A DNA stretch of 64,000 nt. It comes from a virus. Its lineage: Duplodnaviria; Heunggongvirae; Uroviricota; Caudoviricetes. Positions 8,311 to 63,998 of this stretch are shown here, in pieces (the first letter of the stretch is position 1; every line of letters starts with the position of its first letter). The stretch is taken from positions 15,712 through 79,711 of the IMG/VR virus record IMGVR_UViG_3300047476_001238. One strand, written 5' to 3'. A model generated the notes under the pieces. That model was not told the origin of the DNA and made no database searches. It saw nothing but the letters and a program-made list of their open reading frames with translations. A program made the position numbers and the translations under genes.

Positions 8311-9005
8311 CTTGTAAGATAGTAGAGCTCTACTCTACGCATCCACTGATCACTCCAATAAGCAAAATCCTTGGGTTCTAGTACAAATTCCTGGTATTGA
8401 GGCGTTGCGTGTTCATCAGTAGGTCGAGCACACATGAGAATAACACCCGTGTTAATGTTTGTTCCATATGTGTCGTTGTGAGCCGCAGCATATGCCGCGA
8501 GCTGTAGAAAATAATCGTCGATCCACTCACGCTTTTTAGGCTTGTTCGTTTGCTTAAAATCCATGATTGCAGGCTGTCCCTTCCACACCCCGACACAGTC
8601 AGTAGTACCAGCATATAGCCCAGAATAGTATAAAGGAACCTCGCAACCCCAATATTCATCAACATTACCTAATCCTTCTAAAATAACTTGTGCAGCCATA
8701 AACCAGCTAGGCTGTGCAAACGGGTTGGAGGGGAAATCGCCTATATCGTCATTTTTAACATAACGCTCAAGATAGGTATGCATACGGGTGCCACGATTGG
8801 CAGCTTCTGTGGTAATTTGCTGTGCTCGTTCATGCCCAACACGATCTTTCCATTCTTGAAGCTTTTGTCTTGCTTCAGCAGGTTTAGTACGATCTAGGAT
8901 TGTTGTGACACTAGGAACACGGCTACCATCAGGAAGGGCGTAATGACGTTTACCCTCTACACTTTCTCTAGCTAGAGGGGTATAATCAAATTTTGGTATA
9001 ATCAT
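8307..9005 (-). CDS. PD-(D/E)XK family exonuclease (Cas4/YqaJ-like)
   Basis: 232 aa with IMDFKQ (hxDhK) and upstream acidic residues typical of PD-(D/E)XK nucleases, plus a conserved Cys. Confidence 0.55.
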   Translation of the reverse strand: MIIPKFDYTPLARESVEGKRHYALPDGSRVPSVTTILDRTKPAEARQKLQEWKDRVGHERAQQITTEAANRGTRMHTYLERYVKNDDIGDFPSNPFAQPSWFMAAQVILEGLGNVDEYWGCEVPLYYSGLYAGTTDCVGVWKGQPAIMDFKQTNKPKKREWIDDYFLQLAAYAAAHNDTYGTNINTGVILMCARPTDEHATPQYQEFVLEPKDFAYWSDQWMRRVELYYLTS

Positions 9006-9332
9006 TTAAACTCGAAAACTTTCTCCGCAACCGCAGCGGTCACGTTCGTTTGGGTTGATAAACTCGAAACCTTCGTTGAGTCCTTGCCGCTTGTAATCCA
9101 TAGTAAGACCATTTACGTAAGGCAAATCTCGACCGTTAACATATATTTTAACACCATTGCTGTCATAAGTCATCCAGTCTCTAGTGACCGGAGGAACATC
9201 TACATATTCTAACTTATAAGCAAGACCCGAGCACCCGGTAGTACGGACGCCAATCATTATGCCAGATCCACGACCACGTTTGATTAAGTGCTGTTGTACT
9301 TTTTTTGCTGCTTTTTCGGTGAGAGTAATCAT
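9006..9332 (-). CDS. HesB/IscA-type Fe-S cluster insertion protein
   Basis: 108 aa with a GCSGLAYKL core and the C-terminal CGCGESF signature of A-type carriers. Confidence 0.85.
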   Translation of the reverse strand: MITLTEKAAKKVQQHLIKRGRGSGIMIGVRTTGCSGLAYKLEYVDVPPVTRDWMTYDSNGVKIYVNGRDLPYVNGLTMDYKRQGLNEGFEFINPNERDRCGCGESFRV

Positions 9333-11056
9333 TATTCAAATCCTGCTAGCGTTTCTATTTTAACATTTAAACGATTGCCGTTTTTTACTAAATTGTTTTT
9401 TATAAATTCTGTTGGAGACATTACCCCAGGATCAAGATTTTTAGCAATTAGGGTGAGAAGTTTGTGATTACCTGCCCAAATTGATCCAGTAAGGAAAATA
9501 TAACAGGCGGTGATTGCTTCTTGTCCAAATAGCGGTCTGCCATCAACACCTTTGGTATAATAAAATTTATTGTGATTTGTCCAATTATCGTACAAATTGT
9601 CTTCAACTGCTTTGCACATTGGCGATTCTAAGAAATCATCAACTACCTGTTCCAAATTAAAAGTTGCAATTTTTTGACTTCTGAATTGAGTAAGAGCAGA
9701 ATAAATGTGTGATAGCACTGTCATTCTTACAAAATCTTTTTTACTAAAACTAATGCACGTTTCAGGAAATGTTGCATCAAAATAGTGATGTCCATTGAAA
9801 CGTTCGCTAGTGGTATAGGTAAATTTAAACTTTTCTTGATAAGTTTTATCTCTTGCTGCTGGGCTGGCTGGTAAAAGTTCGCTGATAAAAATTTGCAATT
9901 GTAAATCGTGTCTGCTTATTTCTTTAAGTGTTTCTCTCCAGCTTTCTACTGTTTGTCCCGGTAGTCCTTGAATCAATTGAATTTTTGAATGTAGATGTGG
10001 GTAAGCTTCTTTTAATTCTTGTATCATTGACAGATGCACATCCCACCCAACGTCGGGTCTATCAATATTTTCCAATACAGTTTTATTGATATCTTGTACT
10101 GAAATTGTAAATCCCGCAACATCGGTTAGCATATTACTTTTTGCCAATATGTGATAAATTTTTAAATTGTTTTCTTTTCTTAATTTACTAAAATTACCAT
10201 CAATTTTAAAACCAGCATTTTCAAAAATATTTTTATTGCCCATGTATTCAATCATGTCAATATCTTCTTGATACTGACCAACATTGGCATCTGACAGATA
10301 GATGTTCTTGACCTTTAACTCTTGAAACAAATCAATTTCATCTTTATAACTGTTTTTACGTCTAGTGGTTTTATTAGTTAGACCGCTATTCCAATCACAA
10401 AATGTACAACTGTAAGGACAACCCCTAGTCAAATCATAAGGAAGAACTACGCTTATCTGTTTGCTTTGCACATCCTTGATCATTGATGCAAATAATTCTT
10501 TATTGCTCAAGTATGGACTAACTGACAATTGTGGTACGTATTTAAAATCAGCCACAACAGTTTTATTTTTTACTTTATCCAGCCAGGCCACGTTTGAGGT
10601 ATTAAAAGCTATCAGCTTTTTGTTTTTTAAAATGCTTTCTACTATGTCAGCAAATGCCACTTCGCCTGCACCATATATGGCATAATCAGGGAATGTTTTT
10701 TTGGTAAAAAATTCTGGATCAATGTTTACATCAATGCTAGGACCGCCTGCTATAAAACAAATACTTGATGGAACCTTACTCTTGATTCTATTCAATTGAT
10801 CGCAGATAAAACTATCATTCCAAATGTAATGACTACTGCAAAACAGGTCTGGCTTTTCTTTCTCTAATAGACTTACCAACTCATCATCTGACATCTTTTT
10901 TTGTATCGGAAGCATCCAATCTAATTTTTCTCCGATTTCAGGACGATTTTGGTCGATCCATGTTTTTAAATACAGAGCTGCTACTCCCAAAAATAATAAT
11001 TTTTCGGCACTTTCTCTCAGAGTATCATTTGCATGATAAAATAAAACTTTAAGCAT
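9332..11056 (-). CDS. B12-binding-domain radical SAM enzyme (class B type)
   Basis: 574 aa. The N-terminal Rossmann-like block (ICFIAGGPSID) resembles a cobalamin-binding domain. A CPYSCTFC (Cx3Cx2C) radical SAM motif lies mid-protein. Confidence 0.75.
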   Translation of the reverse strand: MLKVLFYHANDTLRESAEKLLFLGVAALYLKTWIDQNRPEIGEKLDWMLPIQKKMSDDELVSLLEKEKPDLFCSSHYIWNDSFICDQLNRIKSKVPSSICFIAGGPSIDVNIDPEFFTKKTFPDYAIYGAGEVAFADIVESILKNKKLIAFNTSNVAWLDKVKNKTVVADFKYVPQLSVSPYLSNKELFASMIKDVQSKQISVVLPYDLTRGCPYSCTFCDWNSGLTNKTTRRKNSYKDEIDLFQELKVKNIYLSDANVGQYQEDIDMIEYMGNKNIFENAGFKIDGNFSKLRKENNLKIYHILAKSNMLTDVAGFTISVQDINKTVLENIDRPDVGWDVHLSMIQELKEAYPHLHSKIQLIQGLPGQTVESWRETLKEISRHDLQLQIFISELLPASPAARDKTYQEKFKFTYTTSERFNGHHYFDATFPETCISFSKKDFVRMTVLSHIYSALTQFRSQKIATFNLEQVVDDFLESPMCKAVEDNLYDNWTNHNKFYYTKGVDGRPLFGQEAITACYIFLTGSIWAGNHKLLTLIAKNLDPGVMSPTEFIKNNLVKNGNRLNVKIETLAGFE

Positions 11057-11429
11057 TTTGTTTATTCTTATAGTCTGCTAGTGCCGCTTTGATTGCATCT
11101 TCTGCTAATATAGAACAGTGAATTTTAACAGGCGGTAGTGCAAGTTCTTCTGCAATTTGAGTGTTTTGAATTGCTGCTGCTTCATCAAGACTCTTTCCCT
11201 TGAGCCACGTTGTGACCAATGATGAACTTGCGATTGCCGAACCGCAACCATAAGTCTTGAATTTGGCATCTGTAATCACATTGTTTTCTACTTGTATTTG
11301 TAATTGAAGTACATCTCCGCAAGCAGGAGCTCCTACTAGACCTGTTCCTACACTGGGATCATTTTTATCCAGTTTACCAACGTTTCTTGGATTTTCATAG
11401 TGATCCAAGACTTGACCTGAGTAAGCCAT
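11049..11429 (-). CDS. iscU: IscU/NifU-like Fe-S cluster scaffold
   Basis: 126 aa with the IscU signature GAPACGDV...YGCGSAIASSS...HCSILAEDA (three conserved Cys). Confidence 0.88.
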   Translation of the reverse strand: MAYSGQVLDHYENPRNVGKLDKNDPSVGTGLVGAPACGDVLQLQIQVENNVITDAKFKTYGCGSAIASSSLVTTWLKGKSLDEAAAIQNTQIAEELALPPVKIHCSILAEDAIKAALADYKNKQNA

Positions 11430-12567: not shown

Positions 12568-13090
12568 AGCTGTTGTTCCTAAAGTTAAAGTATTTAGCCG
12601 AAATTAAAGTTTTTTTCAAAATCTGTATTGAATCTTTACGCTGCATTCTGGCATCTAATAGTCTATTGTATGCAACGTCTTTTTTAAAATTATCCTGTTT
12701 TTTTCGTTGTAATGCTTTTTCGTAGTGTATAATATCAGTACTTAGTTTTCCTATTTTTTTATCAAGCTCTAATAGCGTATTGGCTTGAGGAAATTGTCCG
12801 CGTGTTTCATACAAACAATACAAAATCGCTGTAATTTTATCAACAAAATCATGAACGTATTTGTCATCAAATTGAGTCACTGTCCAACAATATGTGTGTT
12901 TACCAACAATTTGAAACGATCCAACAAAAAACCTGTAGTCCCCAATCGGAATAACTACAGGCTTTGATCTATATTTTGCTAGTTCTTGACGGGTCCATGA
13001 TTGAATATAATTTAGCCCAAATTCTGTAAATGCTGCTCTGGCATTGTCCAAATCAGACTTTCTTTTTGTAATAAATTTGCCCTTCGTCAT
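12521..13090 (-). CDS. hypothetical protein (189 aa)
   Basis: ORF overlapping both neighbours. No motif. Confidence 0.4.
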   Translation of the reverse strand: MTKGKFITKRKSDLDNARAAFTEFGLNYIQSWTRQELAKYRSKPVVIPIGDYRFFVGSFQIVGKHTYCWTVTQFDDKYVHDFVDKITAILYCLYETRGQFPQANTLLELDKKIGKLSTDIIHYEKALQRKKQDNFKKDVAYNRLLDARMQRKDSIQILKKTLISAKYFNFRNNSYETNRNGHQAHSKKN

Positions 13091-13259
13091 TTTTTCTATA
13101 TAGTATATCTTTGTTTACCAATTGGTTAGCTAATAATACTTCTCTTGGACTTAAATCTTTTTTTAATATTTCCGTTGATTCGCTAAATTTACCTAAGATG
13201 TCTGATTCTTCGTTGGTAATTGGTAATCTAACTTTATTTAATAATTCTATTATCTTCAT
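13053..13259 (-). CDS. hypothetical protein (68 aa)
   Basis: Small ORF with a plausible composition. Confidence 0.3.
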   Translation of the reverse strand: MKIIELLNKVRLPITNEESDILGKFSESTEILKKDLSPREVLLANQLVNKDILYRKNDEGQIYYKKKV

Positions 13260-17865: not shown

Positions 17866-17873
17866 TATTTATA
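17866..17873 (-). promoter_or_regulatory. T4-type late promoter TATAAATA driving the 82/230/247/370-aa late operon
   Basis: Exact octamer about 20 nt upstream of the TTG start. Confidence 0.5.
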
Positions 17874-19032
17874 TTATAGAAGTTAATACTTCTTTCCACT
17901 CAGCATGCGTTTTTTCAAATTTAGTACTTCTTAAATTATCAAATTTATCAATTTGATCTAAGAATTTTTGGTGGGAAAATTCTTCTCGTATGGGTATCGA
18001 TTTAAGTAGCTGTAATAACATCGGATAGTCGGCGAACTTATTTCTTAATATATTATATTGGGTTTTATCCAAAAACTCTAATCTAAAATCATGCAGACCA
18101 GGATAAGGCAGTACCTTTTGAAAAATTAAATTTACAGGATCACCTAATCTATTTTCTTTGAGATTCATTTTATGCCAGTCAACCAATTGATCAAGATAAT
18201 AAAAATTCAAGTAGCTGTATACACAATTAACTTTAAACATATGATTAACCGGCATATTTTCTTTGTACCAAGTTAAATTCTCTGTTATTCTTTCCCAAGA
18301 AACCCCCGGTCTCTGATACTCGAATCTTTGTTCTATATCGTCAATACTAAAATATAATTCTACTAATCTACATTCAGACCACAAATTCAAAATTTCATCA
18401 GAAACTCGTACAGTTCCATTGGTGTTATAAAACACATGAACATCAGACAATCCCTTGACTTTTTTAATATTTTTTAAAAAAGTGATATGACTATCACTTA
18501 ACAATGGTTCGCCGCCACCGTGAAAATGCACATTGCGAATATTTTGTAGCTGATTGTCGGTTATTTCAATTTGATTATTTTTTTGATATTTGAATTTTGT
18601 TGCATCAGCTTCGGGAAATAATTTTTGATAGTCAGGCACCCAAGATGAACTATTACCGGGATTGCACACTAAACATTTTAAATTACACAAATTTCCAACG
18701 CTGTAGTCAATGCTAATCGGTCCGGGTGAATTGGTGTCAGAATCATTAAAAAAATTTTCATACAATTCAACCACACCTTGACGCCTACTTGTTAACCCCA
18801 ACGCTTCATCATTATAACAATTAATACATCCAGGAACTTTTTGATCTGATTCTATTAATTTTTTTATTCCGATATGCTTTTTGTTATTCCAAACTTTGGC
18901 TATGCTAATATTATCGTCTGTTCCTATATCACCAGTGTAAAAAGAACAAGGAGTATATTTGATTCTTCCGTTATGGGACCATATGGCCAAATTTTTATAC
19001 ACTTCATAACAAAAGTATTTGTTCTTTTTCAT
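17869..19032 (-). CDS. radical SAM enzyme with a SPASM/twitch-like C-terminal domain (paralog 1)
   Basis: CNLKCLVC (Cx3Cx2C) and a GGGEP SAM-binding motif, with additional Cys pairs N- and C-terminal. Similar layout to the ORF at 61470-62747. Confidence 0.8.
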   Translation of the reverse strand: MKKNKYFCYEVYKNLAIWSHNGRIKYTPCSFYTGDIGTDDNISIAKVWNNKKHIGIKKLIESDQKVPGCINCYNDEALGLTSRRQGVVELYENFFNDSDTNSPGPISIDYSVGNLCNLKCLVCNPGNSSSWVPDYQKLFPEADATKFKYQKNNQIEITDNQLQNIRNVHFHGGGEPLLSDSHITFLKNIKKVKGLSDVHVFYNTNGTVRVSDEILNLWSECRLVELYFSIDDIEQRFEYQRPGVSWERITENLTWYKENMPVNHMFKVNCVYSYLNFYYLDQLVDWHKMNLKENRLGDPVNLIFQKVLPYPGLHDFRLEFLDKTQYNILRNKFADYPMLLQLLKSIPIREEFSHQKFLDQIDKFDNLRSTKFEKTHAEWKEVLTSII

Positions 19033-19037
19033 GTATT

Positions 19038-20501
19038 TTATTCGGTTTTAGTTTTTAAGCTGGCAAGCATTTGTTTCAATTTTGTGCTATCTACATTGGC
19101 CTGTACTTTGCTTTCGATGTCAAATCCCGGCTTTGGTGTAGCTTTAATAAAGGGTGCAGCACCTGCACCTTCAGTTGTGGTAGTGCTTTTGGCTTTGATT
19201 TGATTCATTATGCTACCAGGCGCACTTGGACCACCAGGACGCCCATACCCGATTGTACCAGCCTCAGCTGCATCTTCACCAGGGTCAGTGATACGCATGG
19301 TTTCAATGTTGTATTCTAGATCTACTTTTTGACCCACACCGGTACTGCTTCGACTTTTCATACACTGGATTTGATAGCGTCCGCGCTCGCGCATGGCACG
19401 ACTTGTAAAAATACCAAACACATTATCTGCTGTGTTAATTTTACTGATACCACCTGAAATGTGACTGTGATCAAATTCAATTTCGTCAACTGCGCCTCGG
19501 TTCAGCTGACTTGCAGTGACCATGAGCACCCCCAATTCTTTACTCAAATTACGCAGTTCTTCTGATACATATTTGTCTTTCACAAACAAATCATTGGGAC
19601 TAACTTTGGCACTCACAGGCATCAGCAGATCTAAATAGTCGATCATCATAAAGTCAATTTTGCGCCCTGTTTGGATTTGGTATTCTTTTAGGAATGCTCT
19701 GATATCGTTGATATTGCTTTGTGCAGGCAATGCTTTGACTTGATAAGTGCCAGACTTTTTACCAACCATTTTAATTTTAAGTGCCGCGGTATCTTTGTCT
19801 TTGCGTATGTCTTTGGTACTCATGTTGGTCAACATGGCCGCTGTACGCAAACCTGTTAATTCTTGACTGAGTTCTAGTGTGATATAAACTCCATGAAGTC
19901 CTTGTTGTACCCAGTTAAGGGCAATGTTCATCATGACCAAGCTTTTACCTGAGCCCGATCCGCCAGCAAAAATATTAAGCTCACCTCTACTGAAACCACC
20001 ATACAACAGTTTGTCTACCTGTGGCCAGCCTGTGCTAACTTGCCCACCTGAATCAAAATATCTAGTAATCATGCCAGACGGATCTTCCCAGAAGTCCATG
20101 CCTAGATCTTTGGTAAGACTGATTTGTACAGCATCTTTGATTAGTTTTTCCACAGGATCAAAGTCGCCTTTTTCAATCATGTCTGCTGCTTGCAGAATAG
20201 CTCGTTCAAGTTCTTGTTTACGACTGAATCCTTCAAATTCTTTTAAAAACCAATCGTAGTGACCTTCTTTAAGGTCAGGAACTTCCCTGAGCTCTACACC
20301 TGTTGCTGCTTGAATCTGTTCTTTAGTAGGCAACGTTTTGTGATCATCGCTGTGTTTTTTGATAAACTTTGCAGCTTCTCTAAGACTGCGATCAAAATTT
20401 TCTGCATTGTAAATGTTCTGCACACGCACATATACTTCTGCGTCTTGCAGCATCATCTCCAGGAAAAGTTTTTGTATGTCGGGATTATAATCTTTTGTCA
20501 T
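19038..20501 (-). CDS. 41: DnaB-like replicative DNA helicase (T4 gp41 type)
   Basis: 487 aa with Walker A GGSGSGKS and DnaB-family H2-H4 motifs (IDYLDLL, TASQLNR). Confidence 0.88.
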   Translation of the reverse strand: MTKDYNPDIQKLFLEMMLQDAEVYVRVQNIYNAENFDRSLREAAKFIKKHSDDHKTLPTKEQIQAATGVELREVPDLKEGHYDWFLKEFEGFSRKQELERAILQAADMIEKGDFDPVEKLIKDAVQISLTKDLGMDFWEDPSGMITRYFDSGGQVSTGWPQVDKLLYGGFSRGELNIFAGGSGSGKSLVMMNIALNWVQQGLHGVYITLELSQELTGLRTAAMLTNMSTKDIRKDKDTAALKIKMVGKKSGTYQVKALPAQSNINDIRAFLKEYQIQTGRKIDFMMIDYLDLLMPVSAKVSPNDLFVKDKYVSEELRNLSKELGVLMVTASQLNRGAVDEIEFDHSHISGGISKINTADNVFGIFTSRAMRERGRYQIQCMKSRSSTGVGQKVDLEYNIETMRITDPGEDAAEAGTIGYGRPGGPSAPGSIMNQIKAKSTTTTEGAGAAPFIKATPKPGFDIESKVQANVDSTKLKQMLASLKTKTE

Positions 20502-21451
20502 GACTTGGGACAGTTAAATGTACAAGCTTTTGGCTTGATTGTTTCGATATTGTTGTAAAAATCTTTTAAATTGTTGATAACTTGCGATAACGTTGTTTTA
20601 CTTATTGCAAATTTTTCTTTTTGTTTATAAAAATCACTCTCGTAATAGAATCTATGATCGCCCATCCAGCAACAGGGCAAATAAAAACCCGAAGCTGAAA
20701 TGAAATGCATAGAATGAGTAATTTTGCAAACAGGGTTTATGTCATTTTTGTTGTTGCTGTTTTTCCATTGTATGATACTATCATTTCGATTTCCATCAAA
20801 GCTGCCGTTAGACAGTATTCCAGTTTCTGTTTTATAACCGGTATCAACGTATCGTTTAGGATTCAACCAATCGTTAACATCGTCCCAACGATCACTATTG
20901 TTTAAAACAAACTCGTTGATTCCTAAATTTTTGCTCAACTGTTGAGCTGTTTCGATGTCATTGATATTATAACTAAACACAATAAATTTCCAAACAGTCT
21001 TTGCTCGACTCTTGGTCATTATGCTTATACCACGTTCAATGCTGGGCCAATCTGCATTTACTCTATACTGTGTAAAATTCTCAGGAACGCCATCAATGCT
21101 GAAATTCACAACATCTGTTTCGTCAAGAATTTCTGCCAGTTGCTCCCAGGTTGCATTGCTGGCGTAGCTGCCGTTTGTGGTAATAATTATATTGCATCCT
21201 GCAGATTTAAAATATTTTATCAATGGAATTAGGTCAGGGTAATACAGTGGATCTCCGTAATTTCCATTCAATGCAACGAGCTTTCCTTTAAGATCTATAT
21301 CTAAAAAATTTTTTAGATCTTCAAAATTTAAATTTAAATTTTTCCATTTTTTTGGAAACTTTTTAATAAACTCTGTTCGCGAACATCGCGGGCATTTTAA
21401 GGTGCAAATGTTAGTTGGTTCAAGATGAATGCCACGAATAGATTCAAGCAT
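20498..21451 (-). CDS. radical SAM enzyme with a SPASM/twitch-like domain
   Basis: N-terminal CTLKCPRC (Cx3Cx2C) at residue 16, and a C-terminal Cys cluster (C..CC..C..C). Lies between the helicase and primase genes. Confidence 0.8.
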   Translation of the reverse strand: MLESIRGIHLEPTNICTLKCPRCSRTEFIKKFPKKWKNLNLNFEDLKNFLDIDLKGKLVALNGNYGDPLYYPDLIPLIKYFKSAGCNIIITTNGSYASNATWEQLAEILDETDVVNFSIDGVPENFTQYRVNADWPSIERGISIMTKSRAKTVWKFIVFSYNINDIETAQQLSKNLGINEFVLNNSDRWDDVNDWLNPKRYVDTGYKTETGILSNGSFDGNRNDSIIQWKNSNNKNDINPVCKITHSMHFISASGFYLPCCWMGDHRFYYESDFYKQKEKFAISKTTLSQVINNLKDFYNNIETIKPKACTFNCPKS

Positions 21452-22469
21452 ATAACTTTTTCTTCTTTAACTCTATTTTAAGTCGACTAGTTTCTCTCGC
21501 TGCCAGAATACATTTAAGCACAAACAATTTGCCGTATTTGACTACTGCTTCATTGATGTCTTTGCAGGTCTCCTGCCAGACTGGAAAACTCACAGTCCAC
21601 CCTGCTTCTATTGCGCGGTCAACCAGCTTCTTACCTGCTCGGTCTGAATCAGGAACTACAATGACTTCTCGTTGCAATCTATCAATTTGATCAACTTGTA
21701 TGTCGGATATTTCTGCTCCGTTAAGTGCAACTCCGTCTATGCTCATTGCATCAAATGGTCCTTCGCACACAATAACAAACTTATTATCAGGCTTTTGATT
21801 GTCTAAGTTAAACACAAAGTCTGCTGGATGACTGCTCCAATACTTGGGCTTGATACCATCTGTAATTGCTCGGCTTGTATAGCCTACTGTTTCGCCACGA
21901 TAACGGAAAGGGATGATTATCCTACGATGTAGGTTATACGCTTCTTCGGGTGTCCAATAAAATTCGTATCGGTTTATGTCAATGGATCTACGATGTACGT
22001 ATTCGATAGCAGCAAGTAGTTCGGCTGGTACATTGTTATAATCGCCAATGCTGTAAAAGTTGGCAAGTTCGACCACGTTCTTTGCCTGTTCAGGCAACGA
22101 TCTTGCTTCATACGCAATCTCTTGCTCGGGTTCTTTGGCTAATTCTTCAGGCGCAACTAATTCTCTGAGTCTGACTGCATCAATAACCAATCTCCGGACA
22201 GTTAGGTCGTCGGCACCTAACCAAGCAAGCAACTTTCTAAACTTAAAAGTTAAATGTCTGCCGGGAACAAAACTGGCTTTAAAGCCGCAATTGAAGCAAT
22301 GATAGCTTACAGCACCTGCATTGGTTTTAACCCCGCCACGCCCTCTAGTGTCAGCAGTTTCACCATTATGTACACAGCACGGAGCATTGAAACTGGTCCA
22401 GCCATTCTGACCCGTTTTTTTACGGGCAGGAAGCAGTTGAAGGACAGAATCTTGAATAGTAGTCAGCAT
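21444..22469 (-). CDS. 61: DNA primase (T4 gp61 type)
   Basis: Zinc-ribbon CCVHNG...HCFNCG followed by a TOPRIM block VIVCEGPFDAMS and DSDRAGKK. The start could instead be the TTG at 22499. Confidence 0.82.
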   Translation of the reverse strand: MLTTIQDSVLQLLPARKKTGQNGWTSFNAPCCVHNGETADTRGRGGVKTNAGAVSYHCFNCGFKASFVPGRHLTFKFRKLLAWLGADDLTVRRLVIDAVRLRELVAPEELAKEPEQEIAYEARSLPEQAKNVVELANFYSIGDYNNVPAELLAAIEYVHRRSIDINRYEFYWTPEEAYNLHRRIIIPFRYRGETVGYTSRAITDGIKPKYWSSHPADFVFNLDNQKPDNKFVIVCEGPFDAMSIDGVALNGAEISDIQVDQIDRLQREVIVVPDSDRAGKKLVDRAIEAGWTVSFPVWQETCKDINEAVVKYGKLFVLKCILAARETSRLKIELKKKKLYA

Positions 22470-22550
22470 CCTAGTATTATATACTAAAACACACAACAAC
22501 TCAAATAATTTATAGGTTTGTTATTCGATTTTAAATGTTTCAAAAGACTG

Positions 22551-25216: not shown

Positions 25217-25485
25217 ACCGGATGATGGAAAAGTGGGTCTTCTTGTTTGCTTAACTCGTATATAATTTTAACACGTTCCAGTGCATCTTGTAAAGCAGGA
25301 TTATGCTCGGCTGCTTCCAGTATTGGAATCCAAGCGTCTGATAATTCCATTCTACGTTGTTGAATATCTAGTGCGTAATCTTCGCCAATTAACACTCGCT
25401 CGGAATCGCCAACTTTGCGAGCATATATTCTAGGGCCATCACGCTCGTATATATAAGTGGCACCCGGTTCTAGTTGACTTGTCAT
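25213..25485 (-). CDS. hypothetical protein (90 aa)
   Basis: Coupled ORF. Confidence 0.4.
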   Translation of the reverse strand: MTSQLEPGATYIYERDGPRIYARKVGDSERVLIGEDYALDIQQRRMELSDAWIPILEAAEHNPALQDALERVKIIYELSKQEDPLFHHPV

Positions 25486-26102
25486 GAAAAAAATACCTGT
25501 ATGCTATGTCTGCAACTCAATCCAATCAAATCATCAACAGCGGATACTGGTGTCACCGAGTGTTGATACATTGCAGGAAAAATTACCAATCTATCATTTA
25601 CACATTCTATCACAGTTGTTTCCGTTCGTTGTTCTTGATAAAGCCCGTTGCTCAATTCAAAATCGCCTCCAACAAATTGTTTAGGTGTTTGGTAGCAGAA
25701 ATAATTCCAAGTCACATGCCCGCCGCCATCGGTATGCCATTTATAAAAATCAGCAGTCTGATATCTACTTAAAACCATATTGTAGTTTCTTGATTGTGAC
25801 CCAACAAAATGATCTAGTTCTGGCATCTGGGCAACTGCTTGCGCTATATCAGCATGAAAAAACTTTTCTGTAAAAAAAGCCATTATTCCCAAGGTGTCAT
25901 TATCAAATGTATCCAACCACAAGTTTAGATTTTTTCTAAATCCGTGATCAATCCTTCGCACTCCATGATCAATAATTTCTGCATCAATCATTTTATCCTC
26001 AACAGCCGATATCATATTCAATATGCGGCTGTTGTTTTTTGCGCCCAGAAAATTGTCAATCACAATGTGGGGTACTGGTTTAGAGAAACAATTTATTTGC
26101 AT
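25482..26102 (-). CDS. 2OG-Fe(II) oxygenase superfamily protein
   Basis: HTDGGG (HxD) iron-binding motif followed by a distal H (AMYQHSV), with prolyl-hydroxylase-like spacing. Confidence 0.7.
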   Translation of the reverse strand: MQINCFSKPVPHIVIDNFLGAKNNSRILNMISAVEDKMIDAEIIDHGVRRIDHGFRKNLNLWLDTFDNDTLGIMAFFTEKFFHADIAQAVAQMPELDHFVGSQSRNYNMVLSRYQTADFYKWHTDGGGHVTWNYFCYQTPKQFVGGDFELSNGLYQEQRTETTVIECVNDRLVIFPAMYQHSVTPVSAVDDLIGLSCRHSIQVFFS

Positions 26103-26662
26103 GATAAAAAACTTCTAGCTCTATCTGTTATTATATACCTGCCGGTAAGTCTGTCTTGAAAATCTTCAATTACACTTTTGTGTATTGGCAAGTCATCAAG
26201 ACTGTATTCTTGAGCAGTAAATTCATCTGTTGCATTAAATGTACTAGCGAAATAGATTTGCGGGAAATCAACCTTGGACACTATATCATAAAGCAACTTG
26301 TGATGTATATGACCGTAGTCTCCGTCTTGATTGTGTGTTAGTACTAATACTGGCTGTACAGTATTGATTACTCGATGAACATTTTGCTCTGCGTCCGCAG
26401 GATTCCAAAAATTAAACTGTTGCGTTTGTTGATCTTGGTAGTCATCTACAAATCCTAGAAATTCGCAGGTGACATTTCTTTGTGACCAAAAATTTTCAAC
26501 TTCTTGAGCTCGAGGATCTATTTTGGTGTAGGTAAGATACGCAATGTGCCAATCAAAATTTGAATAATGTTCAATCAAAGGTAAAGCAAATATAATGCAA
26601 TCGTCTGGGTGTGCAACAACTGCTAATGCTTTACCAGCACTTGGCATAATCAACCACTTCAC
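26093..26662 (-). CDS. LmbE/PIG-L-like (GlcNAc) deacetylase family protein
   Basis: N-terminal VVAHPDDCIIF matches the (A)HPDD(E) zinc-binding motif. A downstream H..DH cluster is present. Confidence 0.55.
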   Translation of the reverse strand: MKWLIMPSAGKALAVVAHPDDCIIFALPLIEHYSNFDWHIAYLTYTKIDPRAQEVENFWSQRNVTCEFLGFVDDYQDQQTQQFNFWNPADAEQNVHRVINTVQPVLVLTHNQDGDYGHIHHKLLYDIVSKVDFPQIYFASTFNATDEFTAQEYSLDDLPIHKSVIEDFQDRLTGRYIITDRARSFLSCK

Positions 26663-27134
26663 TTTGTCTGGATATGTCTTTTACAAAATAAGCGCACAAG
26701 GGTTTTTCAACACCAGATTCTAACGGAATGGCCAACAGTTGTCCAGGTTTGAGTTTAGGAAAATACCATTTGACGTCTTGATAAATGTCTACAATTTCAA
26801 TTTGTGCAAACTCAGGCCTAAAACTGCTCAGTGGGTTAAAACAATATACACTGAATCCTCGATCGTTGATACTGGTTAACGGAACCACTTCGAGATCGCC
26901 TAGATCCGGTTCACCAATTAATACATGCCAATCCACTGGCATTTTAATTACGTTTTCCCCAATACGTAAAACCAGGGCCGGGCTGTTAAAGCTTTCTAAA
27001 AAAATTAAGGGAATATAAAAATAATCTGGGGTACGAGGATCTGAATTATCAAGTACTGCAAATCTTAAATCTTCTACTTCGTCGGGTATTTCGTTTAGCT
27101 CGTAGGCTGTGTTTTCTAGTGTTAGTATTCTCAT
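26631..27134 (-). CDS. hypothetical protein (about 167 aa)
   Basis: Start set at the ATG overlapping the upstream stop (TAATG). The longer ORF would overlap by 43 nt. Confidence 0.4.
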   Translation of the reverse strand: MRILTLENTAYELNEIPDEVEDLRFAVLDNSDPRTPDYFYIPLIFLESFNSPALVLRIGENVIKMPVDWHVLIGEPDLGDLEVVPLTSINDRGFSVYCFNPLSSFRPEFAQIEIVDIYQDVKWYFPKLKPGQLLAIPLESGVEKPLCAYFVKDISRQSEVVDYAKCW

Positions 27135-41840: not shown

Positions 41841-41841
41841 A

Positions 41842-46210: not shown

Positions 46211-46219
46211 TACTGTTCC

Positions 46220-47348: not shown

Positions 47349-47368
47349 GATTAAAATATTTAATCTAA

Positions 47369-56428: not shown

Positions 56429-56675
56429 CTAGATCCAACTCTTCTACAATAGGAGCAACTGACCAATCGGTATTATCTCTAATATCTTTAATCATTTCGT
56501 CACAAGCCTGTTGTGCCTGATCTTTGTTGACGTAAGCTTTTTCGAAAATACGATTTCCGTCGGCAAACTCTGCCATGGCAATATAAATTTTTTTCATGTT
56601 ATAATTATAAACGATTTGAAAATTATTGTCAATGAACTTTGGCATCAGTGCAGCTTTTACACAAACTGTCTGCAC
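56418..56675 (-). CDS. hypothetical protein (85 aa)
   Basis: Coupled ORF. Confidence 0.35.
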   Translation of the reverse strand: MQTVCVKAALMPKFIDNNFQIVYNYNMKKIYIAMAEFADGNRIFEKAYVNKDQAQQACDEMIKDIRDNTDWSVAPIVEELDLVDE

Positions 56676-57477
56676 TGTAGCAAGGTTTCATATTTTCTCT
56701 GATAAGATTTACCATAGGAGATCCGGTATACAAATCATCGTAAGAATCGCGTACCAAGTTTCCTATCACATGTTTTAAATCGTAATCCATACAGCACAAA
56801 ACTACGTCTCCGTTTGGTAATAATACATGCTGATCGTAATTTGCTGTTTTGCTGCAACTGACCGGGCGTTCATGGCGAGTAATAAAATTTACTGGTTGCT
56901 CTTTGACTTGTTCTTTGTTAAGACTTCCTGCTCGGTCATGACCAAACCAATTGTAAAGCTGTATTCCCAAATGGCTGAGATCTTTGTGTACTTTACCATG
57001 ATTGCTCATGGTCATTGCTTCAAGTTTAATATTGGCTTCTCGTACTGCGGTGGTCACCATATGGAATACTGCTTCCCATTCGGTGCTGTATTTCCACCCT
57101 CGCATGTTTCCGTACTCATCTGGAAAATGTACACTCAGCACTTCAATTTGTGCTCTGTACCGGTAAAGTAATGGTATCACTCGCTCGGCAGTTTCAATGT
57201 CCCAATTATAAAAAGTAGTGTAGATAGCCACATTGTGTCCAGAAATCAATGCATGCTCTAACATGTCTGTTGCAGCAGGATTGATCCAGGCTTCGGCCAT
57301 GCCCGAAAAATCAATTCGAGTATTTTTTGGCACCTTTGATAGTGCTGTTTTGAATGTGTCCAGACTCATGTACTTGACATCATTGCCATACATTTCTCTG
57401 AGATTGTCTTGAGGACAAAAATTGCACATCAGTGAACAACCAATCATGGTTGTTATTTCCATTGTAGGTCTTTGCAT
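56629..57477 (-). CDS. radical SAM enzyme with a SPASM/twitch-like Cys-rich C-terminus
   Basis: CSLMCNFC (Cx3Cx2C) at residue 14 and a C-terminal VLCCMDYD...CYSADSLCKSC cluster. Confidence 0.8.
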   Translation of the reverse strand: MQRPTMEITTMIGCSLMCNFCPQDNLREMYGNDVKYMSLDTFKTALSKVPKNTRIDFSGMAEAWINPAATDMLEHALISGHNVAIYTTFYNWDIETAERVIPLLYRYRAQIEVLSVHFPDEYGNMRGWKYSTEWEAVFHMVTTAVREANIKLEAMTMSNHGKVHKDLSHLGIQLYNWFGHDRAGSLNKEQVKEQPVNFITRHERPVSCSKTANYDQHVLLPNGDVVLCCMDYDLKHVIGNLVRDSYDDLYTGSPMVNLIRENMKPCYSADSLCKSCTDAKVH

Positions 57478-59243: not shown

Positions 59244-60032
59244 TTATATCTGCGCTGCTTGACTGCCGGAATCTAATCGTTCAATATCTTCTTCGACACA
59301 TTGCTCGCCGTATTGAATTTCAACAATTGTACAAGGTCGCGTAAACGGATTAGTCAGTTGATGCCAGGTGTTTTTTGGTACACGCCATTCATCGTACTTT
59401 CCTAAGATTTTAGGCGGATTTTGCATATCTCCGGGCAAGGCCATATTGATCATACAGGTGCCCTCTGTCACCATCCAGTACTCATTGCGATGTTGATGGC
59501 GCTGCATACTGAGTGTTTGCCCGGGCATTACTTGTAATGTTTTTACTTTGGCACCGGGTATTTCATTTAGTACTGTATAACTGCCCCAAGCACGTTGAAC
59601 TTCAACCGAAGTCCAACGCTTTAAAATATCGCTGCTGCTGTTTAGTTTGTCATCACCGCCTACACCAAACACAAATTCAACATCGCTAAAAATCATTTCA
59701 GGAATGTTATCTTGAGTTCTATCCCCGCCATTGGCAAAAATGATTTTTCCTTTGGGGAACATCTCTTTGACTCGTCTTATAGCATCACAAGCAGTTCCGT
59801 CTGTGTCGTCAAACTCAATTACACGATCGACCATGTGTAAATTGTCTAGCACTGTCATGCGTTCGTGCCAGGTCATAAATGAACGCCCTTTTTTACGTGC
59901 AAGCCAAGCATCTGAGTTTAGCCCAACCACGAGCCAATCGCCCAAGTGGTCAGCATGGTTGAGGTAGGATATGTGTCCACTGTGTACTGGATCAAATCCG
60001 CCAGTGCATATTACAATTCGTTCAGCGTTCAT
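59244..60032 (-). CDS. bifunctional-looking sugar-phosphate nucleotidyltransferase (HIGH-motif cytidylyl/adenylyltransferase fold) fused to a C-terminal cupin domain
   Basis: N-terminal CTGGFDPVHSGH (HxGH). C-terminal QRHQHRNEYWMVTEG cupin motif. Confidence 0.65.
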   Translation of the reverse strand: MNAERIVICTGGFDPVHSGHISYLNHADHLGDWLVVGLNSDAWLARKKGRSFMTWHERMTVLDNLHMVDRVIEFDDTDGTACDAIRRVKEMFPKGKIIFANGGDRTQDNIPEMIFSDVEFVFGVGGDDKLNSSSDILKRWTSVEVQRAWGSYTVLNEIPGAKVKTLQVMPGQTLSMQRHQHRNEYWMVTEGTCMINMALPGDMQNPPKILGKYDEWRVPKNTWHQLTNPFTRPCTIVEIQYGEQCVEEDIERLDSGSQAAQI

Positions 60033-60790: not shown

Positions 60791-61031
60791 TTTTTAATAC
60801 CTCTATAACTATTTTTTCTTTTAAGGGTTTTAATCTAGACTCCAGCTGATTGCATGCTTCGGCCAATTCTAATTCTGATCCCCAATTCAATGCATGTATC
60901 AGATGAGTTGCCCATCTACCACACACATCTTTTTCGATTTGAATATCTACTGCGTTGTATTTTGGCTTGGCACTAGAGCACAGAGCCCACTCGTATAATA
61001 TGTTCTTTGCATGTTCTTTATAGTCCATCAA
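60777..61031 (-). CDS. hypothetical protein (84 aa)
   Basis: Coupled ORF. Confidence 0.35.
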   Translation of the reverse strand: MMDYKEHAKNILYEWALCSSAKPKYNAVDIQIEKDVCGRWATHLIHALNWGSELELAEACNQLESRLKPLKEKIVIEVLKNGSV

Positions 61032-61480
61032 AGTGTGATATCTTCCATTCCTGCTGTTCTTAAACGAACAACATGGCCTAACATAAAGTTTTTACTTTCT
61101 AGACCTTTCATGACTCCGAGCCATCGATTTCTAAGAAAAGCAACTTCATTAATAATAGTTTCATAATCAATAACTTCGTCTTCACCGTCCACATATTTCT
61201 CGGCATCCCGGGATGATAGCGAACGAGCGTAGGATTCAAGATATTTCTGAAAGTGTTTGCGTCGTATCTTACGAAGTTGTATATTAAGATAATTAAGTAC
61301 AGCTTCGATTTCCTGAAGTTGGTTGAACCTGTGTTCCGTAATACCTGGTAGGCCCGCGGTGGACTTCTCCAGGTTTCCCTTAATAGCTGTATCATATTTT
61401 GCTTGTTGGAGTTCACCTTCGTAATAATTTATGAAGTCAGGTATATTACCAAGATCTGCAACTATTCGATTATACCACAT
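61028..61480 (-). CDS. hypothetical protein (150 aa)
   Basis: Coupled ORF. Confidence 0.4.
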   Translation of the reverse strand: MWYNRIVADLGNIPDFINYYEGELQQAKYDTAIKGNLEKSTAGLPGITEHRFNQLQEIEAVLNYLNIQLRKIRRKHFQKYLESYARSLSSRDAEKYVDGEDEVIDYETIINEVAFLRNRWLGVMKGLESKNFMLGHVVRLRTAGMEDITL

Positions 61481-62747
61481 ATTTTTCTAACCATGGAAAC
61501 AAGACTCGCCAATTTGTATTACGCCGTCTATCTTTTTCATCAAGGAACGTAAACAATTTTACTAGTTCTTCATTGTTTTGTACACTACATTGGCATTCAG
61601 ACATTATTCCTTGCATGTATTTTACTACAGTTTTTTCTTCTTCGGAGTCTGTTTTCATTAGGCTTAAAATTTTAGCGAACGACTCTTGAAATTCGCTGCC
61701 TCCTAATATTTTTGGGTGCATATAAGTTGGCCCTGTTTGTGCCGATGGTGTTGTAAAATACTGTCCAATTTTTCTCTTTTTACTTTGTTCATTTAAGTAT
61801 TCCAACAACTCTGGCATGGTTTTGATAGTTAATACTGTAATAACTTGATTGATATTTAATTTGATCCAAGCTTGATCAATTAGATATTCAAAATTCTTTT
61901 TCCATTGTTCTAAATCTAGACCGCTGCGAACGTATTCCTGCTGAGGACCAAAACAATCTATGCTGCATGTGATGTCTAGTCTTTTTATTTTTTTAGTTGC
62001 CAGCATGTTTTGAAACTGTGCAATAAACTTTTTTAACATCTCATGAGGAACCATTAAATTTGTCACGATGTTAATTTCACAATTGGAATTTTTTTGTTGT
62101 GATAAAAAATCAAGCAGTATCACAAATTCTCGTTGAAAGAATGGTTCTCCACCAAGTACATTTAATCTTTCTAGACTAGAATAGTTTTTATCTAACCATT
62201 CGAGTAATAAAGGAAACAATTCTGCAGAATTATCTTGTGCAATTGGTTTTAGTGTTATTCCGTTTTTATCAAAATTGCCAAATTTGATGTGTTCTTGATT
62301 TATAACTGAACTGTTAGATGGGCTGCAATATAGACAGCCCAGGTTGCAAACATTGTTTAGATATACTTCAAGAATTCTAGGACTTACTATAACCGCAGTG
62401 GGATCATTCTCTAGTTCTACAGGCACTTGATCCGGAATTGCAAGATGTTGCATCCTGTCACTGAATCCGCCAACTTTTTCTATTTCTTGACAATGACTGC
62501 AATTGTGTTCCGGCCATTCACCAGCAAGCATGTGTTGTCTATCTTTTATCACATGCTTGTTGTTGTGAAAATTAAAAAAATTTTCTTTATTTAATGGATG
62601 AAAAGTGGTCCGATGGCAACTGGACGATACCCCATTATGGAGGTACAGAGTTGACCAGGACCACTTTAATTTACAGGCAGTTTCTGTGTTTATAGGAAAA
62701 AATTTTTTTTCCTTATTCATCATCGTAGTCGTCGGGTTCCTCATCAA
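61470..62747 (-). CDS. radical SAM enzyme with a SPASM/twitch-like domain (paralog 2 of 17869-19032)
   Basis: CNLGCLYC (Cx3Cx2C) and LGGEP. The N-terminal Cys/Trp-rich extension (CKLKWSW...SCHRTTF) parallels the other paralog. Confidence 0.8.
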   Translation of the reverse strand: MMRNPTTTMMNKEKKFFPINTETACKLKWSWSTLYLHNGVSSSCHRTTFHPLNKENFFNFHNNKHVIKDRQHMLAGEWPEHNCSHCQEIEKVGGFSDRMQHLAIPDQVPVELENDPTAVIVSPRILEVYLNNVCNLGCLYCSPSNSSVINQEHIKFGNFDKNGITLKPIAQDNSAELFPLLLEWLDKNYSSLERLNVLGGEPFFQREFVILLDFLSQQKNSNCEINIVTNLMVPHEMLKKFIAQFQNMLATKKIKRLDITCSIDCFGPQQEYVRSGLDLEQWKKNFEYLIDQAWIKLNINQVITVLTIKTMPELLEYLNEQSKKRKIGQYFTTPSAQTGPTYMHPKILGGSEFQESFAKILSLMKTDSEEEKTVVKYMQGIMSECQCSVQNNEELVKLFTFLDEKDRRRNTNWRVLFPWLEKYVV

Positions 62748-62934
62748 CCACGTATTCTTTTAATGCTCTGGCAAGTGCAGCATCTGTGGCTCCAAACACT
62801 TTGAGTTCTTCATCGGACAACATATCAACCATAACACTCATTAAGTTGTCTGCACACTCTTGGCGATCTTTTGTTGGGACATAAGATTTCATAATTGTGT
62901 ACAACTCAACTAACACTTCTACATCAATGCTCAT
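62713..62934 (-). CDS. small acidic protein (73 aa)
   Basis: ORF with an Asp/Glu-rich tail. Confidence 0.35.
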   Translation of the reverse strand: MSIDVEVLVELYTIMKSYVPTKDRQECADNLMSVMVDMLSDEELKVFGATDAALARALKEYVVDEEPDDYDDE

Positions 62935-63998
62935 TCTACAGTTTCCTCTTCTGATTGAACAGCAGCAGTATCTTTATGCGGATTCTTTGCAAAGTCTTCC
63001 ATGACCTTGTCCAAGCTGCCGTCATCATTGCGCTCCCACGCCTTACGGAATTGCTTGATAACGGTACCGTCTGCTAGCGTGTATTTAAGACTGTTGCCTT
63101 CTTTCTGCAATAAACCTTTGCCTTCAAACATGTCTACTAGCCCTGAGTACGGATTCATACCAGATTCATAAGGAATCTTGACTTGTACACTTTCAAAAGG
63201 CTTGGCATAGCGTGTTTTCATGATTTTACATGCGGCACGAATACCTTTAACTTCCGAAATCTTGTTGCCATCTTCATCTTCTTTGAGCTTGAGCTTACGC
63301 ATAGCAACAACAATTGAACTTGCGTAAATGAAGCCTTGTCCGCCCGAGATCTTGTCATCAGGGTCAAACATGTCTTGGCTAGCATAGGTATGATTTGTGG
63401 CAACCAGACCGATGTTCAAGCTACCAAACATGTTTACACAATTACGTACCAGAGCTGTCAGTGCCTTGGGCTTACGACCCATGTCACCTTTCAAGTCACC
63501 GGCTTCAAATTGATTAACATCTGTGGGAGTTAATAACATACCCAAGCTATCTAATACGATTAACACTTTAGGACGCTCAGTCTCTGGTAGTGTTTTGTAC
63601 TCTTTAACAAACTCTGTGATCATTTTAGCAACGTCATCGATCATTGCCATGTTGAGTTTGAGAAGCTTGTTTTCAGAAGTATCGACGCCGAGTGCGTGAA
63701 GCCAGGCTTCGTCGAGTGCGTTTTCAGTATCGATAAGAATAACATATATACCTTGTTCTTGTGCGTTCTTAACCAGATTTCCTGAGCAGATAAAGCTTTT
63801 GCCTGCACCAGACTCTCCAGCAAATACAGTAACCTTACCCATTGGAATACCCTTATTAAAGTCCCCGCTAATAAGATAGTTGAGAGCGTAATTGTTTGTG
63901 GAGATCCAGTCTGTTGGGTCGTTAAATCCGACACTGATACCGTCAATACTTTTTGTAATACTTTTGCGAAACTTGCTTACGTCAAATGGTTTAGCCAT
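62931..63998 (-). CDS. uvsX: UvsX (RecA-like) recombinase
   Basis: Walker A FAGESGAGKSF. ATNHTYASQDMF and NPYSGLVDMF correspond to the T4 UvsX INHTYETQEMF and DPYSGLLDMA blocks. Confidence 0.85.
   Translation of the reverse strand: MAKPFDVSKFRKSITKSIDGISVGFNDPTDWISTNNYALNYLISGDFNKGIPMGKVTVFAGESGAGKSFICSGNLVKNAQEQGIYVILIDTENALDEAWLHALGVDTSENKLLKLNMAMIDDVAKMITEFVKEYKTLPETERPKVLIVLDSLGMLLTPTDVNQFEAGDLKGDMGRKPKALTALVRNCVNMFGSLNIGLVATNHTYASQDMFDPDDKISGGQGFIYASSIVVAMRKLKLKEDEDGNKISEVKGIRAACKIMKTRYAKPFESVQVKIPYESGMNPYSGLVDMFEGKGLLQKEGNSLKYTLADGTVIKQFRKAWERNDDGSLDKVMEDFAKNPHKDTAAVQSEEETVE

Follow-up and report, generated by a model that had tools for sequence, protein, structure and literature searches.

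Why would a bacteriophage with a T4-type replication and recombination apparatus place radical S-adenosylmethionine (radical SAM, rSAM) enzymes between its core genes, and what might these enzymes act upon? The question is raised by a 64,000-nucleotide stretch of viral DNA (Caudoviricetes), positions 15,712 to 79,711 of IMG/VR record IMGVR_UViG_3300047476_001238, which is referred to here in its entirety as the window. A preliminary description, made from the letters alone, reported four dispersed rSAM open reading frames (ORFs) and considered such a number to be highly unusual. The window encodes at least five rSAM enzymes, from four unrelated families, and comes from a jumbo myovirus, aquatic and uncultivated, whose replication and recombination genes are of T4 type. 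The identity of these enzymes and their genomic context can be stated with high confidence. As to their function, the reading developed below is that they tailor nucleotide-activated sugars, or a glycan built from them, and we put the chances of this being correct at about even.

Four unrelated families account for at least five radical SAM enzymes

The four ORFs initially reported, called rSAM1 to rSAM4 here, are indeed rSAM enzymes, and all lie on the minus strand. The count was nevertheless too low, as a motif scan of all ORFs revealed a fifth, encoded together with the iron–sulfur (Fe-S) assembly proteins IscU and IscA (Table 1). The CX3CX2C motif is present once in each of the five proteins and is invariant, or nearly so, in four family alignments; the proteins have the partial TIM-barrel fold of the Radical SAM superfamily (PF04055), and their AlphaFold2 (AF2) models are confident. 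Against a Pfam Radical_SAM gathering cut-off of 29.5 bits, scores of 46 (rSAM1), 46.2 (rSAM2), 34.9 (rSAM4) and 45.6 bits (the fifth enzyme) were obtained. The rSAM3 core is divergent and matches weakly (14.4 bits), but homologues of rSAM3, both free and fused to other domains, pass the cut-off (33–36 bits).

None of the five reaches the cut-off of a named NCBIfam family, and the models of the families with which comparison had been suggested (QueE, NrdG, viperin and anSME) and that of MoaA all score far below theirs. The identities rejected on this basis are QueE (best score 16.9 bits against 260, with PHROG matches labelled ‘QueE-like’ of just 21–26 bits), NrdG (20–23 against 131), prokaryotic viperin (NF038283; 32.9 for rSAM2 and 32.0 for rSAM4 against 180), MoaA (30 against 284), BlsE (12 against 400), DesII (14 against 450), PqqE, NirJ/Ahb, TYW1 and anSME; the models for anSME and for maturases of ribosomally synthesized and post-translationally modified peptides (RiPPs) all give 40 bits or less against cut-offs of 250–650. 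The window annotations include neither QueC nor QueD, and the ribonucleotide reductase of the phage is of class I (NrdA/NrdB), so there is no NrdG-dependent class III enzyme in the window. Searches of the Protein Data Bank (PDB) by phmmer with single proteins returned nothing useful.

These scores bear on the possibility that the enzymes boost host metabolism, by replacing or supplementing housekeeping rSAMs of the host in the synthesis of heme, lipoate, biotin, molybdenum cofactor or other cofactors, or in tRNA/rRNA modification. An explanation of this kind was proposed by Timms et al. for phage CP220 (PMC2853527), and the window does contain other host-type auxiliary genes (PstS, a phosphate porin, TctA, IscU and IscA). 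However, the MoaA, NirJ/Ahb, LipA, HemN, MiaB/RimO, TYW1 and QueE models all remain at least 5-fold below threshold, and close homologues are found overwhelmingly on viral or metagenomic contigs rather than in bacterial genomes; host-metabolism functions therefore appear most improbable. The nutrient-uptake genes of host type lie at 44804–50101 and encode a phosphate-selective porin O/P (44804–46210), a PstS-like phosphate-binding protein (46220–47335) and a TctA-family transporter subunit (48809–50101).

rSAM1 and rSAM4 belong to one family. Both match NCBIfam NF033640 (‘twitch domain-containing radical SAM protein’, N_Twi_rSAM) end to end (profile positions 2–397/398), with 218.7 and 232.3 bits against a cut-off of 170, whereas rSAM2 (29.6 bits) and rSAM3 (13.2 bits) are not members. 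The Cys/Trp-rich N-terminal extension that had been seen to be common to rSAM1 and rSAM4 is therefore the curated N-terminal twitch domain of this family. Its four cysteines are invariant in 37 rSAM1 orthologues (C8/C29/C69/C72), and also when the rSAM1 and rSAM4 subfamilies are aligned together with a homologue from a Ralstonia phage. Their spacing in rSAM1 (C-x20-C-x39-C-x2-C) is the same as that of C-terminal twitch domains, and they are predicted to constitute the site of a single auxiliary twitch-type cluster. No C-terminal Cys cluster is present in either protein, such that the extra C-terminal cysteines originally attributed to all four enzymes are found in rSAM2 and rSAM3, but are replaced by N-terminal ones in rSAM1 and rSAM4. 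Besides the N-terminal cysteines and the CX3CX2C motif (C134/138/141 in rSAM4), both proteins have a GGEP and a C-terminal D..R motif. The true start of rSAM4 is most likely the ATG at 62723, giving a protein of 417 aa, as this codon overlaps the stop codon of the upstream ORF and homologues are 411–420 aa long. The two proteins had been described as paralogs, which is correct insofar as they share a family but overstates their relatedness: their identity is only 22%, and separate orthologues of each, at 50–60% identity, are found on hundreds of contigs, so they are old family members rather than recent duplicates.

The AF2 model of rSAM1 (pLDDT 91) matches many full-length ‘uncultured Caudovirales’ rSAMs in a viral structure library and, more weakly, proteins of KVP40 and phi-pp2. 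A PDB search with the rSAM1 family profile alone yielded nothing; the best solved relatives found with a joint N-twitch profile were viperin (9e-7) and MoaA (1e-5). Literature searches for NF033640 retrieved no characterized member. A small protein of about 176 aa adjoins rSAM1 in 35 of 46 unique orthologues from IMG/VR contigs (e.g. L015 4805–5335; loci L015–L093). This partner has a Rossmann-like N-terminus, an N-terminal ‘ILCTGNP’ motif and a YxxxK motif, and its only profile matches, all weak, are to short-chain dehydrogenases/reductases (SDRs). The two genes stay paired in eight of the 10 cases in which rSAM1 is located away from the helicase gene.

Within NF033640, the phage proteins form large subfamilies of their own; bacterial members are 23–28% identical and occur in tandem arrays, whereas two members on contigs from metagenome-assembled genomes (MAGs) are 34–37% identical, at least one of these contigs really being phage. 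A scan of one genome per species (185,579 species) gave 25 loci with full or near-full-length N-twitch matches, all on MAG contigs. One of these, L156, was rejected as a bacterial locus because it is a phage contig within a MAG (it carries DUF6267), and L171 may be a phage contig, judging from its low GC content and density of rSAM genes. The bacterial homologues come mostly from Bdellovibrionales, Bacteriovoracaceae and Haliscomenobacter MAGs, with up to eight genes in tandem, and their neighbours encode glycosyltransferases of family GT4, DxD-motif proteins, DUF6071 proteins and other rSAMs; the DxD motif was taken by eye as a GT-A-like signature, and only one DxD protein has a Pfam mannosyltransferase match, which is weak. 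Arrays of five to eight N-twitch paralogs, of Bdellovibrionales type and from Haliscomenobacter, are present on the bacterial MAG contigs L159, L167, L170, L172 and L173, and an 802-aa protein among these arrays is a fusion of two rSAM domains. DUF6071 proteins, which are weakly similar to GDSL/SGNH hydrolases, recur beside N-twitch genes, not only in bacterial and metagenomic loci (L167, L094) but also in a cultured jumbo phage, Ralstonia phage RsoM2USA (L098, 126846–128228).

rSAM2 and rSAM3 share no detectable similarity, but each has its additional cysteines in the C-terminal region. In rSAM2 (CX3CX2C at C16/20/23), C242, C260, C310 and C314 are invariant among 40 orthologues and C261 is at least 90% conserved; its relatives in isolates include an rSAM of CP220 (32% identity) and one of Pelagibacter phage Mosig (26%). 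rSAM3 (CX3CX2C at C14/18/21) matches the Pfam SPASM profile (36.6 bits, cut-off 21.5), and C208/C228/C273/C276 are invariant in 30 diverse homologues, with the spacing C-x19-C-x44-C-x2-C; a search with the family profile found the BtrN twitch domain (2.5e-9), followed by DesII. The seven-Cys SPASM motif CX9-15GX4C...CX2CX5CX3C...C (PF13186/TIGR04085) is found in neither protein, and rSAM3 lacks CX2CX5CX3C even though it passes the SPASM profile. Both enzymes fit the shorter, one-cluster twitch pattern, because only four extra cysteines are conserved per family. The assignment of all four enzymes to the auxiliary-cluster (twitch/SPASM-type) class is thus supported by the four extra conserved cysteines of each, but a full two-cluster SPASM domain is unlikely for any of them.

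This cysteine count is also relevant to the possibility that the enzymes are maturases of RiPP or anSME type that modify a virion protein or a peptide of the phage, with thioether, formylglycine, epimerized or cross-linked products. Such a role would be in keeping with the SPASM domain of rSAM3, and a conserved 82-aa gene (p82) following rSAM1 matches a ‘virion structural protein’ PHROG. However, four conserved auxiliary cysteines per family indicate one twitch cluster and not the two clusters of a seven-Cys SPASM domain. Moreover, rSAM2 and rSAM3 begin 13–15 residues ahead of their CX3CX2C motifs, too short a stretch to accommodate a peptide-recognition (RRE) domain at the N-terminus, and what rSAM1 and rSAM4 have in this position is their twitch domain. 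Neither a PqqD-like gene nor a short Cys-, Ser- or Gly-rich precursor ORF lies beside any of the rSAM genes, and the NCBIfam models for RiPP maturases all fall well short of their cut-offs. Peptide or protein modification is, thus, very unlikely. p82 was considered as a peptide substrate of rSAM1 and rejected, as it contains no Cys, matches a ‘virion structural protein’ PHROG and persists beside other types of rSAM.

The fifth enzyme is a candidate member of the class B (cobalamin-dependent) rSAM methyltransferases. It has their architecture, with a putative N-terminal B12-binding domain ahead of the rSAM core, but the Pfam B12-binding match (20.9 bits) is below the cut-off of 32.1, and the best NCBIfam match, to the KedN5-family C-methyltransferases, reaches 97.6 bits against a cut-off of 700. 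Its gene lies in tandem between those for IscU and IscA, with overlapping codons (9006–11429). In relatives, IscU adjoins IscA directly, or a different rSAM, of 273 aa, is found beside IscU (L007, L014). A PD-(D/E)XK (Cas4-like) nuclease is encoded just downstream of IscA (8307–9005) and may be a further client of the phage Fe-S assembly proteins, because such nucleases often bind an Fe-S cluster.

Gene slots among the replication genes

The window encodes a T4-type primase, helicase, UvsX and UvsY. It had been called T4-like, which is accurate for these replication genes but loose for the phage, the nearest isolates being the jumbo myoviruses Atu_ph07, PA5oct, GAP32 and CBB (45–49% identity for the helicase, about 67% for UvsX). 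No match was found at the nucleotide level (megablast of both regions against 50,697 phage records), and there are no tRNA genes or Rfam families in the window. The rSAM genes occupy slots at the junctions of core genes. One had been noticed between the helicase and primase genes; this is rSAM2, the stop and start codons of which overlap those of its two neighbours, in the order primase, rSAM2, helicase, rSAM1, p82. rSAM4 is located between UvsX, with a 73-aa ORF, and UvsY, an order that is kept in relatives, and the remaining slots are IscU/B12-type rSAM/IscA and p486/rSAM3. Stop and start codons overlap or abut at these slots, and the rSAM cassettes are probably co-expressed with the replication genes, because they are conserved at core-gene junctions with codons arranged in this way. 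The 150-aa neighbour of rSAM4 (p150) was considered as a functional partner, given the overlapping codons and conserved order, but was rejected because p150 is UvsY, a core gene.

Metagenomic homologues are abundant for each family (754 for rSAM1, 1049 for rSAM2, 1437 for rSAM4 and 1716 representatives for rSAM3), and the helicase gene lies within two genes of rSAM1 in 34 of the 46 unique rSAM1 orthologues. Related contigs of up to 333–364 kb retain the order primase-(rSAM2)-helicase-(an rSAM)-p82...DUF6267...IscU-IscA, but the slots differ in what they contain, which may be an enzyme of rSAM1 type, an rSAM2 paralog or a protein that resembles rSAM1 but is shorter (320 aa; 37% identity over 298 residues), and a slot may also be empty; rSAM2 is absent from one relative (L006). 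The GC content of the rSAM genes is 7–10 points below that of their neighbours. Recent horizontal acquisition was considered as an explanation and rejected, because the same deficit with respect to the helicase gene recurs in all related loci compared (62/62 for rSAM1, 13/13 for rSAM2); low GC content is, therefore, a family trait rather than an indication that the genes entered this phage recently.

Table 1. Positions in the window of the radical SAM genes, their cysteine motifs and associated genes
Feature	Position	Strand	Remarks
A-type Fe-S carrier IscA/HesB	9006..9332	-	Pfam Fe-S_biosyn 68.9 bits
Fifth rSAM, class B (B12-binding + rSAM) architecture, 574 aa	9332..11056	-	motif scan of all ORFs
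IscU/NifU-type Fe-S scaffold	11049..11429	-	Pfam NifU_N 170.7 bits; 78% identical in related phage loci
rSAM1, N-terminal-twitch rSAM enzyme, 387 aa	17869..19032	-	directly downstream of replicative helicase
rSAM1 CX3CX2C (CNLKCLVC), SAM-cluster site, C116/120/123	18664..18687	-	conserved in orthologues
rSAM1 N-terminal twitch domain, residues 1-100, C8/C29/C69/C72	18733..19032	-	
DnaB/gp41-type replicative helicase	19038..20501	-	DnaB_C; core gene flanked by rSAM2 and rSAM1
rSAM2, C-terminal twitch-like site, 317 aa	20498..21451	-	between primase and helicase
rSAM2 C-terminal auxiliary Cys region, C242, C260, C261, C310, C314	20510..20728	-	
Primase (Toprim)	21444..22499	-	Toprim_2; context
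rSAM3, divergent rSAM with C-terminal twitch (Pfam SPASM) domain, 282 aa	56629..57477	-	
rSAM3 twitch domain, C208, C228, C273, C276 (plus C229)	56650..56856	-	
p486, 486 aa	57482..58942	-	immediately upstream of rSAM3; PHROG 3560; in 26/57 IMG/VR loci
Nucleotidyltransferase (RfaE domain II-like) fused to PMI-type cupin	59244..60032	-	with rSAM3 in 34/57 IMG/VR loci
Class I SAM methyltransferase, 253 aa	60029..60790	-	same module; in 45/57 IMG/VR loci
UvsY-like recombination mediator	61028..61480	-	PHROG 231, 5.7e-14; start overlaps rSAM4 end
rSAM4, second N-terminal-twitch rSAM enzyme	61470..62747	-	between UvsX and UvsY
rSAM4 N-terminal twitch Cys, C25/C44/C83/C86 (TTG-start numbering)	62490..62675	-	
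UvsX/RecA-like recombinase	62931..63998	-	~67% to jumbo-phage UvsX

The position of these genes suggests another explanation, in which the rSAMs beside primase, helicase, UvsX and UvsY act on free nucleotides or phage DNA, through radical chemistry on the ribose or base or through hypermodification of DNA with sugars. In T4, the genes for glucosyltransferase and dCMP hydroxymethylase are close to uvsX, and DNA-modification genes are found among the replication genes. The tight positional coupling to replication and recombination genes is consistent with such a role, as are the best solved matches of the N-twitch profile, viperin acting on CTP and MoaA on GTP, the weak prokaryotic viperin matches of rSAM2 and rSAM4 (about 32 bits) and the MazG-like pyrophosphohydrolase adjoining rSAM3. 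However, the family scores remain remote (viperin 32 against 180, QueE 17 against 260 and MoaA 30 against 284 bits), and no partner of the QueC, QueD, DpdA, dCMP hydroxymethylase or 5-hydroxymethyldeoxyuridine kinase type was found in the window. The flanking core genes occur in relatives with or without an rSAM, as in L006, so adjacency to replication genes does not necessarily imply a common function; the rSAM1-SDR pair is also found away from these genes. Action on nucleotides or DNA is thus considered unlikely. A more elaborate version, in which rSAM cassettes, nucleotide-sugar genes and Fe-S proteins together build an rSAM-dependent hypermodification of phage DNA or nucleotide precursors, seems improbable; if it were true, the N-twitch family, with its SDR-like partner in relatives, would bring novel radical chemistry to a ribose or sugar moiety, and phage DNA modifications would gain a new class.

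Several neighbouring genes merit mention. Between 15062 and 16917, a 370-aa DUF6267 protein with a ligase-like KWDG (KxDG) motif adjoins a 247-aa protein with a GDLDLAVD motif typical of pol-beta-type nucleotidyltransferases; the two are kept downstream of the helicase in relatives and may be a nucleic-acid repair or ligation pair. A 68-aa ORF (13053–13259) has the lowest GC content of the window (26%) and is kept in eight related loci. The region 31581–33524 encodes a Band 7/SPFH protein and an AAA ATPase, the latter identified by a weak match; on a 364-kb contig (L003), rSAM1 is found in a similar set, with an AAA ATPase (again a weak match) encoded upstream of it, and DUF2201 and Band 7 proteins encoded downstream.

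Nucleotide-sugars and glycans as candidate substrates

Three types of evidence, namely domain fusions, gene neighbourhoods and closest solved relatives (BtrN, BlsE, DesII, viperin and MoaA), favour the tailoring of nucleotide-sugars or glycans. Most characterized twitch enzymes act on sugars, cyclitols or nucleotides, as is the case for BtrN, SpeY, BlsE, AbmM and MoaA. Domains of the rSAM3 family are fused to FkbM methyltransferases in P0467, P0490 and the Synechococcus cyanophage DSL-LC02, in which the fusion gene lies beside a mannosyltransferase gene, between tail-fibre genes; others are fused to a GT2 (P0443) or a GT1-like domain (P0461). rSAM3 itself is part of a conserved module, consisting of a methyltransferase, an RfaE-II-like nucleotidyltransferase/cupin, p486, for which there is no Pfam or PDB match, and rSAM3 (57 IMG/VR loci). 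In isolates, Pelagibacter phage Mosig carries three rSAM2-type genes with those for an ArnB-type sugar aminotransferase, a carbamoyltransferase and a methyltransferase, and CP220 carries five rSAM genes with those for an amidinotransferase, two nucleotide-diphospho-sugar transferases and a PAP2 phosphatase. The frequent pairing of rSAM1 orthologues with an SDR-like protein, the GT4 neighbours of bacterial N-twitch genes and the lack of space for an RRE domain in rSAM2 and rSAM3 count on the same side.

The sugar genes of the window encode an RfaE-I-like kinase, an RfaE-II-like adenylyltransferase, an ADP-heptose-6-epimerase-like protein and three SDRs resembling nucleoside diphosphate (NDP)-hexose 4,6-dehydratases, together with an NDP-hexose C-methyltransferase, an FkbM methyltransferase, a PIG-L deacetylase, GT9, GT17 and GT34. 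By similarity, these genes consistently point to a putative heptose or deoxyhexose pathway. Among the targets suggested in the preliminary description (virion proteins, nucleotides or a heptose-type glycan), the heptose-type sugar pathway is the best supported. A heptose/deoxyhexose locus at 35973–43595 contains genes for the ADP-heptose-6-epimerase-like protein, RfaE-II-like adenylyltransferase, a cupin, RfaE-I-like kinase, a GT9 heptosyltransferase-like protein, NDP-hexose C-methyltransferase and a 4,6-dehydratase-like SDR. A plus-strand island at 51155–55366 encodes GT34, an SDR, the FkbM methyltransferase, a split thiamine pyrophosphate (TPP) enzyme and a dTDP-glucose-4,6-dehydratase-like protein; the split enzyme (TPP_enzyme_C at 53320–53934 and Transket_pyr at 53931–54413) suggests two-carbon branch chemistry on a sugar. 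Further tailoring enzymes are encoded at 25482–28072, where genes for a 2-oxoglutarate-Fe(II) oxygenase, a PIG-L-family deacetylase and a PrmA-like methyltransferase adjoin that for a DEAD-box helicase.

In the mechanism proposed, the [4Fe-4S] cluster bound by the CX3CX2C motif would cleave SAM, and the resulting 5'-deoxyadenosyl radical would abstract a hydrogen atom from a nucleotide-linked sugar or glycan intermediate, the single auxiliary twitch cluster accepting or relaying an electron, as in BtrN-type dehydrogenases. The steps catalysed might include oxidation, epimerization, deoxygenation (with the SDR-type reductase, in relatives) and decarboxylation, with C-methylation by the B12-type enzyme, and would thus go beyond those open to ordinary SDR and methyltransferase enzymes. 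Phage IscU and IscA would load the oxygen-sensitive clusters during infection in an oxic habitat, with sulfur (from IscS) and reductant provided by the host. The glycan acceptor could be the host envelope, the virion or DNA.

Several points weigh against the involvement of these enzymes in sugar tailoring. All the sugar-gene assignments are below NCBIfam equivalog cut-offs. The four rSAM families have no characterized member, and a sugar substrate is proposed here from sequence and gene context. Three of the five rSAM genes are located among replication and recombination genes rather than in sugar loci. A six-frame hidden Markov model search found no SDR-like rSAM1 partner in the window, and part of the neighbourhood evidence from MAGs stems from contaminating phage contigs, such as L156. 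If sugar tailoring is nevertheless correct, unusual glycans would be made by oxygen-sensitive radical chemistry in oxic surface waters, with consequences for phage-host surface interactions and for enzyme discovery.

Comparison with known multi-rSAM phages and twitch enzymes

Multi-rSAM phages are already documented, and the N-twitch family is already curated in NCBIfam. What is added here is a fifth rSAM with an IscU/IscA pair, the placement of the twitch domain at the N-terminus, the conserved rSAM slots at core-gene junctions, the rSAM1-SDR pair of relatives and the fusions tying the rSAM3 family to glycan enzymes. rSAM genes are among the commonest unexplained accessory genes of large aquatic phages; NF033640 emerges as a major phage family, often travelling with a small SDR-like partner, and the candidate substrates are narrowed to nucleotide-sugars.

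The Campylobacter phages CP220 and CPt10 have 11 and 12 rSAM genes, respectively (PMC2853527). T4-like marine genomes with an A-type carrier and/or IscU have two to seven further Fe-S-related genes, and one such Tara genome, of 183 kb and with an A-type carrier, has 12 rSAMs (PMC5332604). Pelagimyophages carry rSAM cassettes (PMC7029224). The number of rSAM genes in the window is, thus, not as unusual as first supposed. The phage studied here resembles CP220/CPt10, the Tara genome TARA_ERS488813_N000010 and the pelagimyophages in having many rSAM genes in a T4-type genome, and the marine multi-rSAM genomes in combining rSAMs with IscU or an A-type carrier. It differs from the multi-rSAM T4-related phages in being nearer to the Atu_ph07/GAP32/CBB jumbo phages, and in that its rSAMs are dispersed at core-gene junctions rather than grouped in one module. 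The N-twitch family is not described in any of these three publications.

Among characterized enzymes, the twitch rSAMs acting on sugars, cyclitols and nucleosides (BtrN, SpeY, BlsE, AbmM and DesII) are at most 18% identical to the proteins of the window, with no equivalog cut-off reached, and the twitch domain of rSAM1 and rSAM4 is N-terminal, in permuted order with respect to BtrN-type enzymes. Viperin and MoaA are the best solved relatives of the N-twitch core at the sequence level, with scores far below family cut-offs; viperin has no auxiliary cluster, and that of MoaA is C-terminal. Pairs of the AprD4/AprD3 type consist of an rSAM dehydratase and an NAD(P)H reductase. By analogy, the rSAM1 orthologues and the small SDR-like protein with which most of them are paired may work together in a similar manner.

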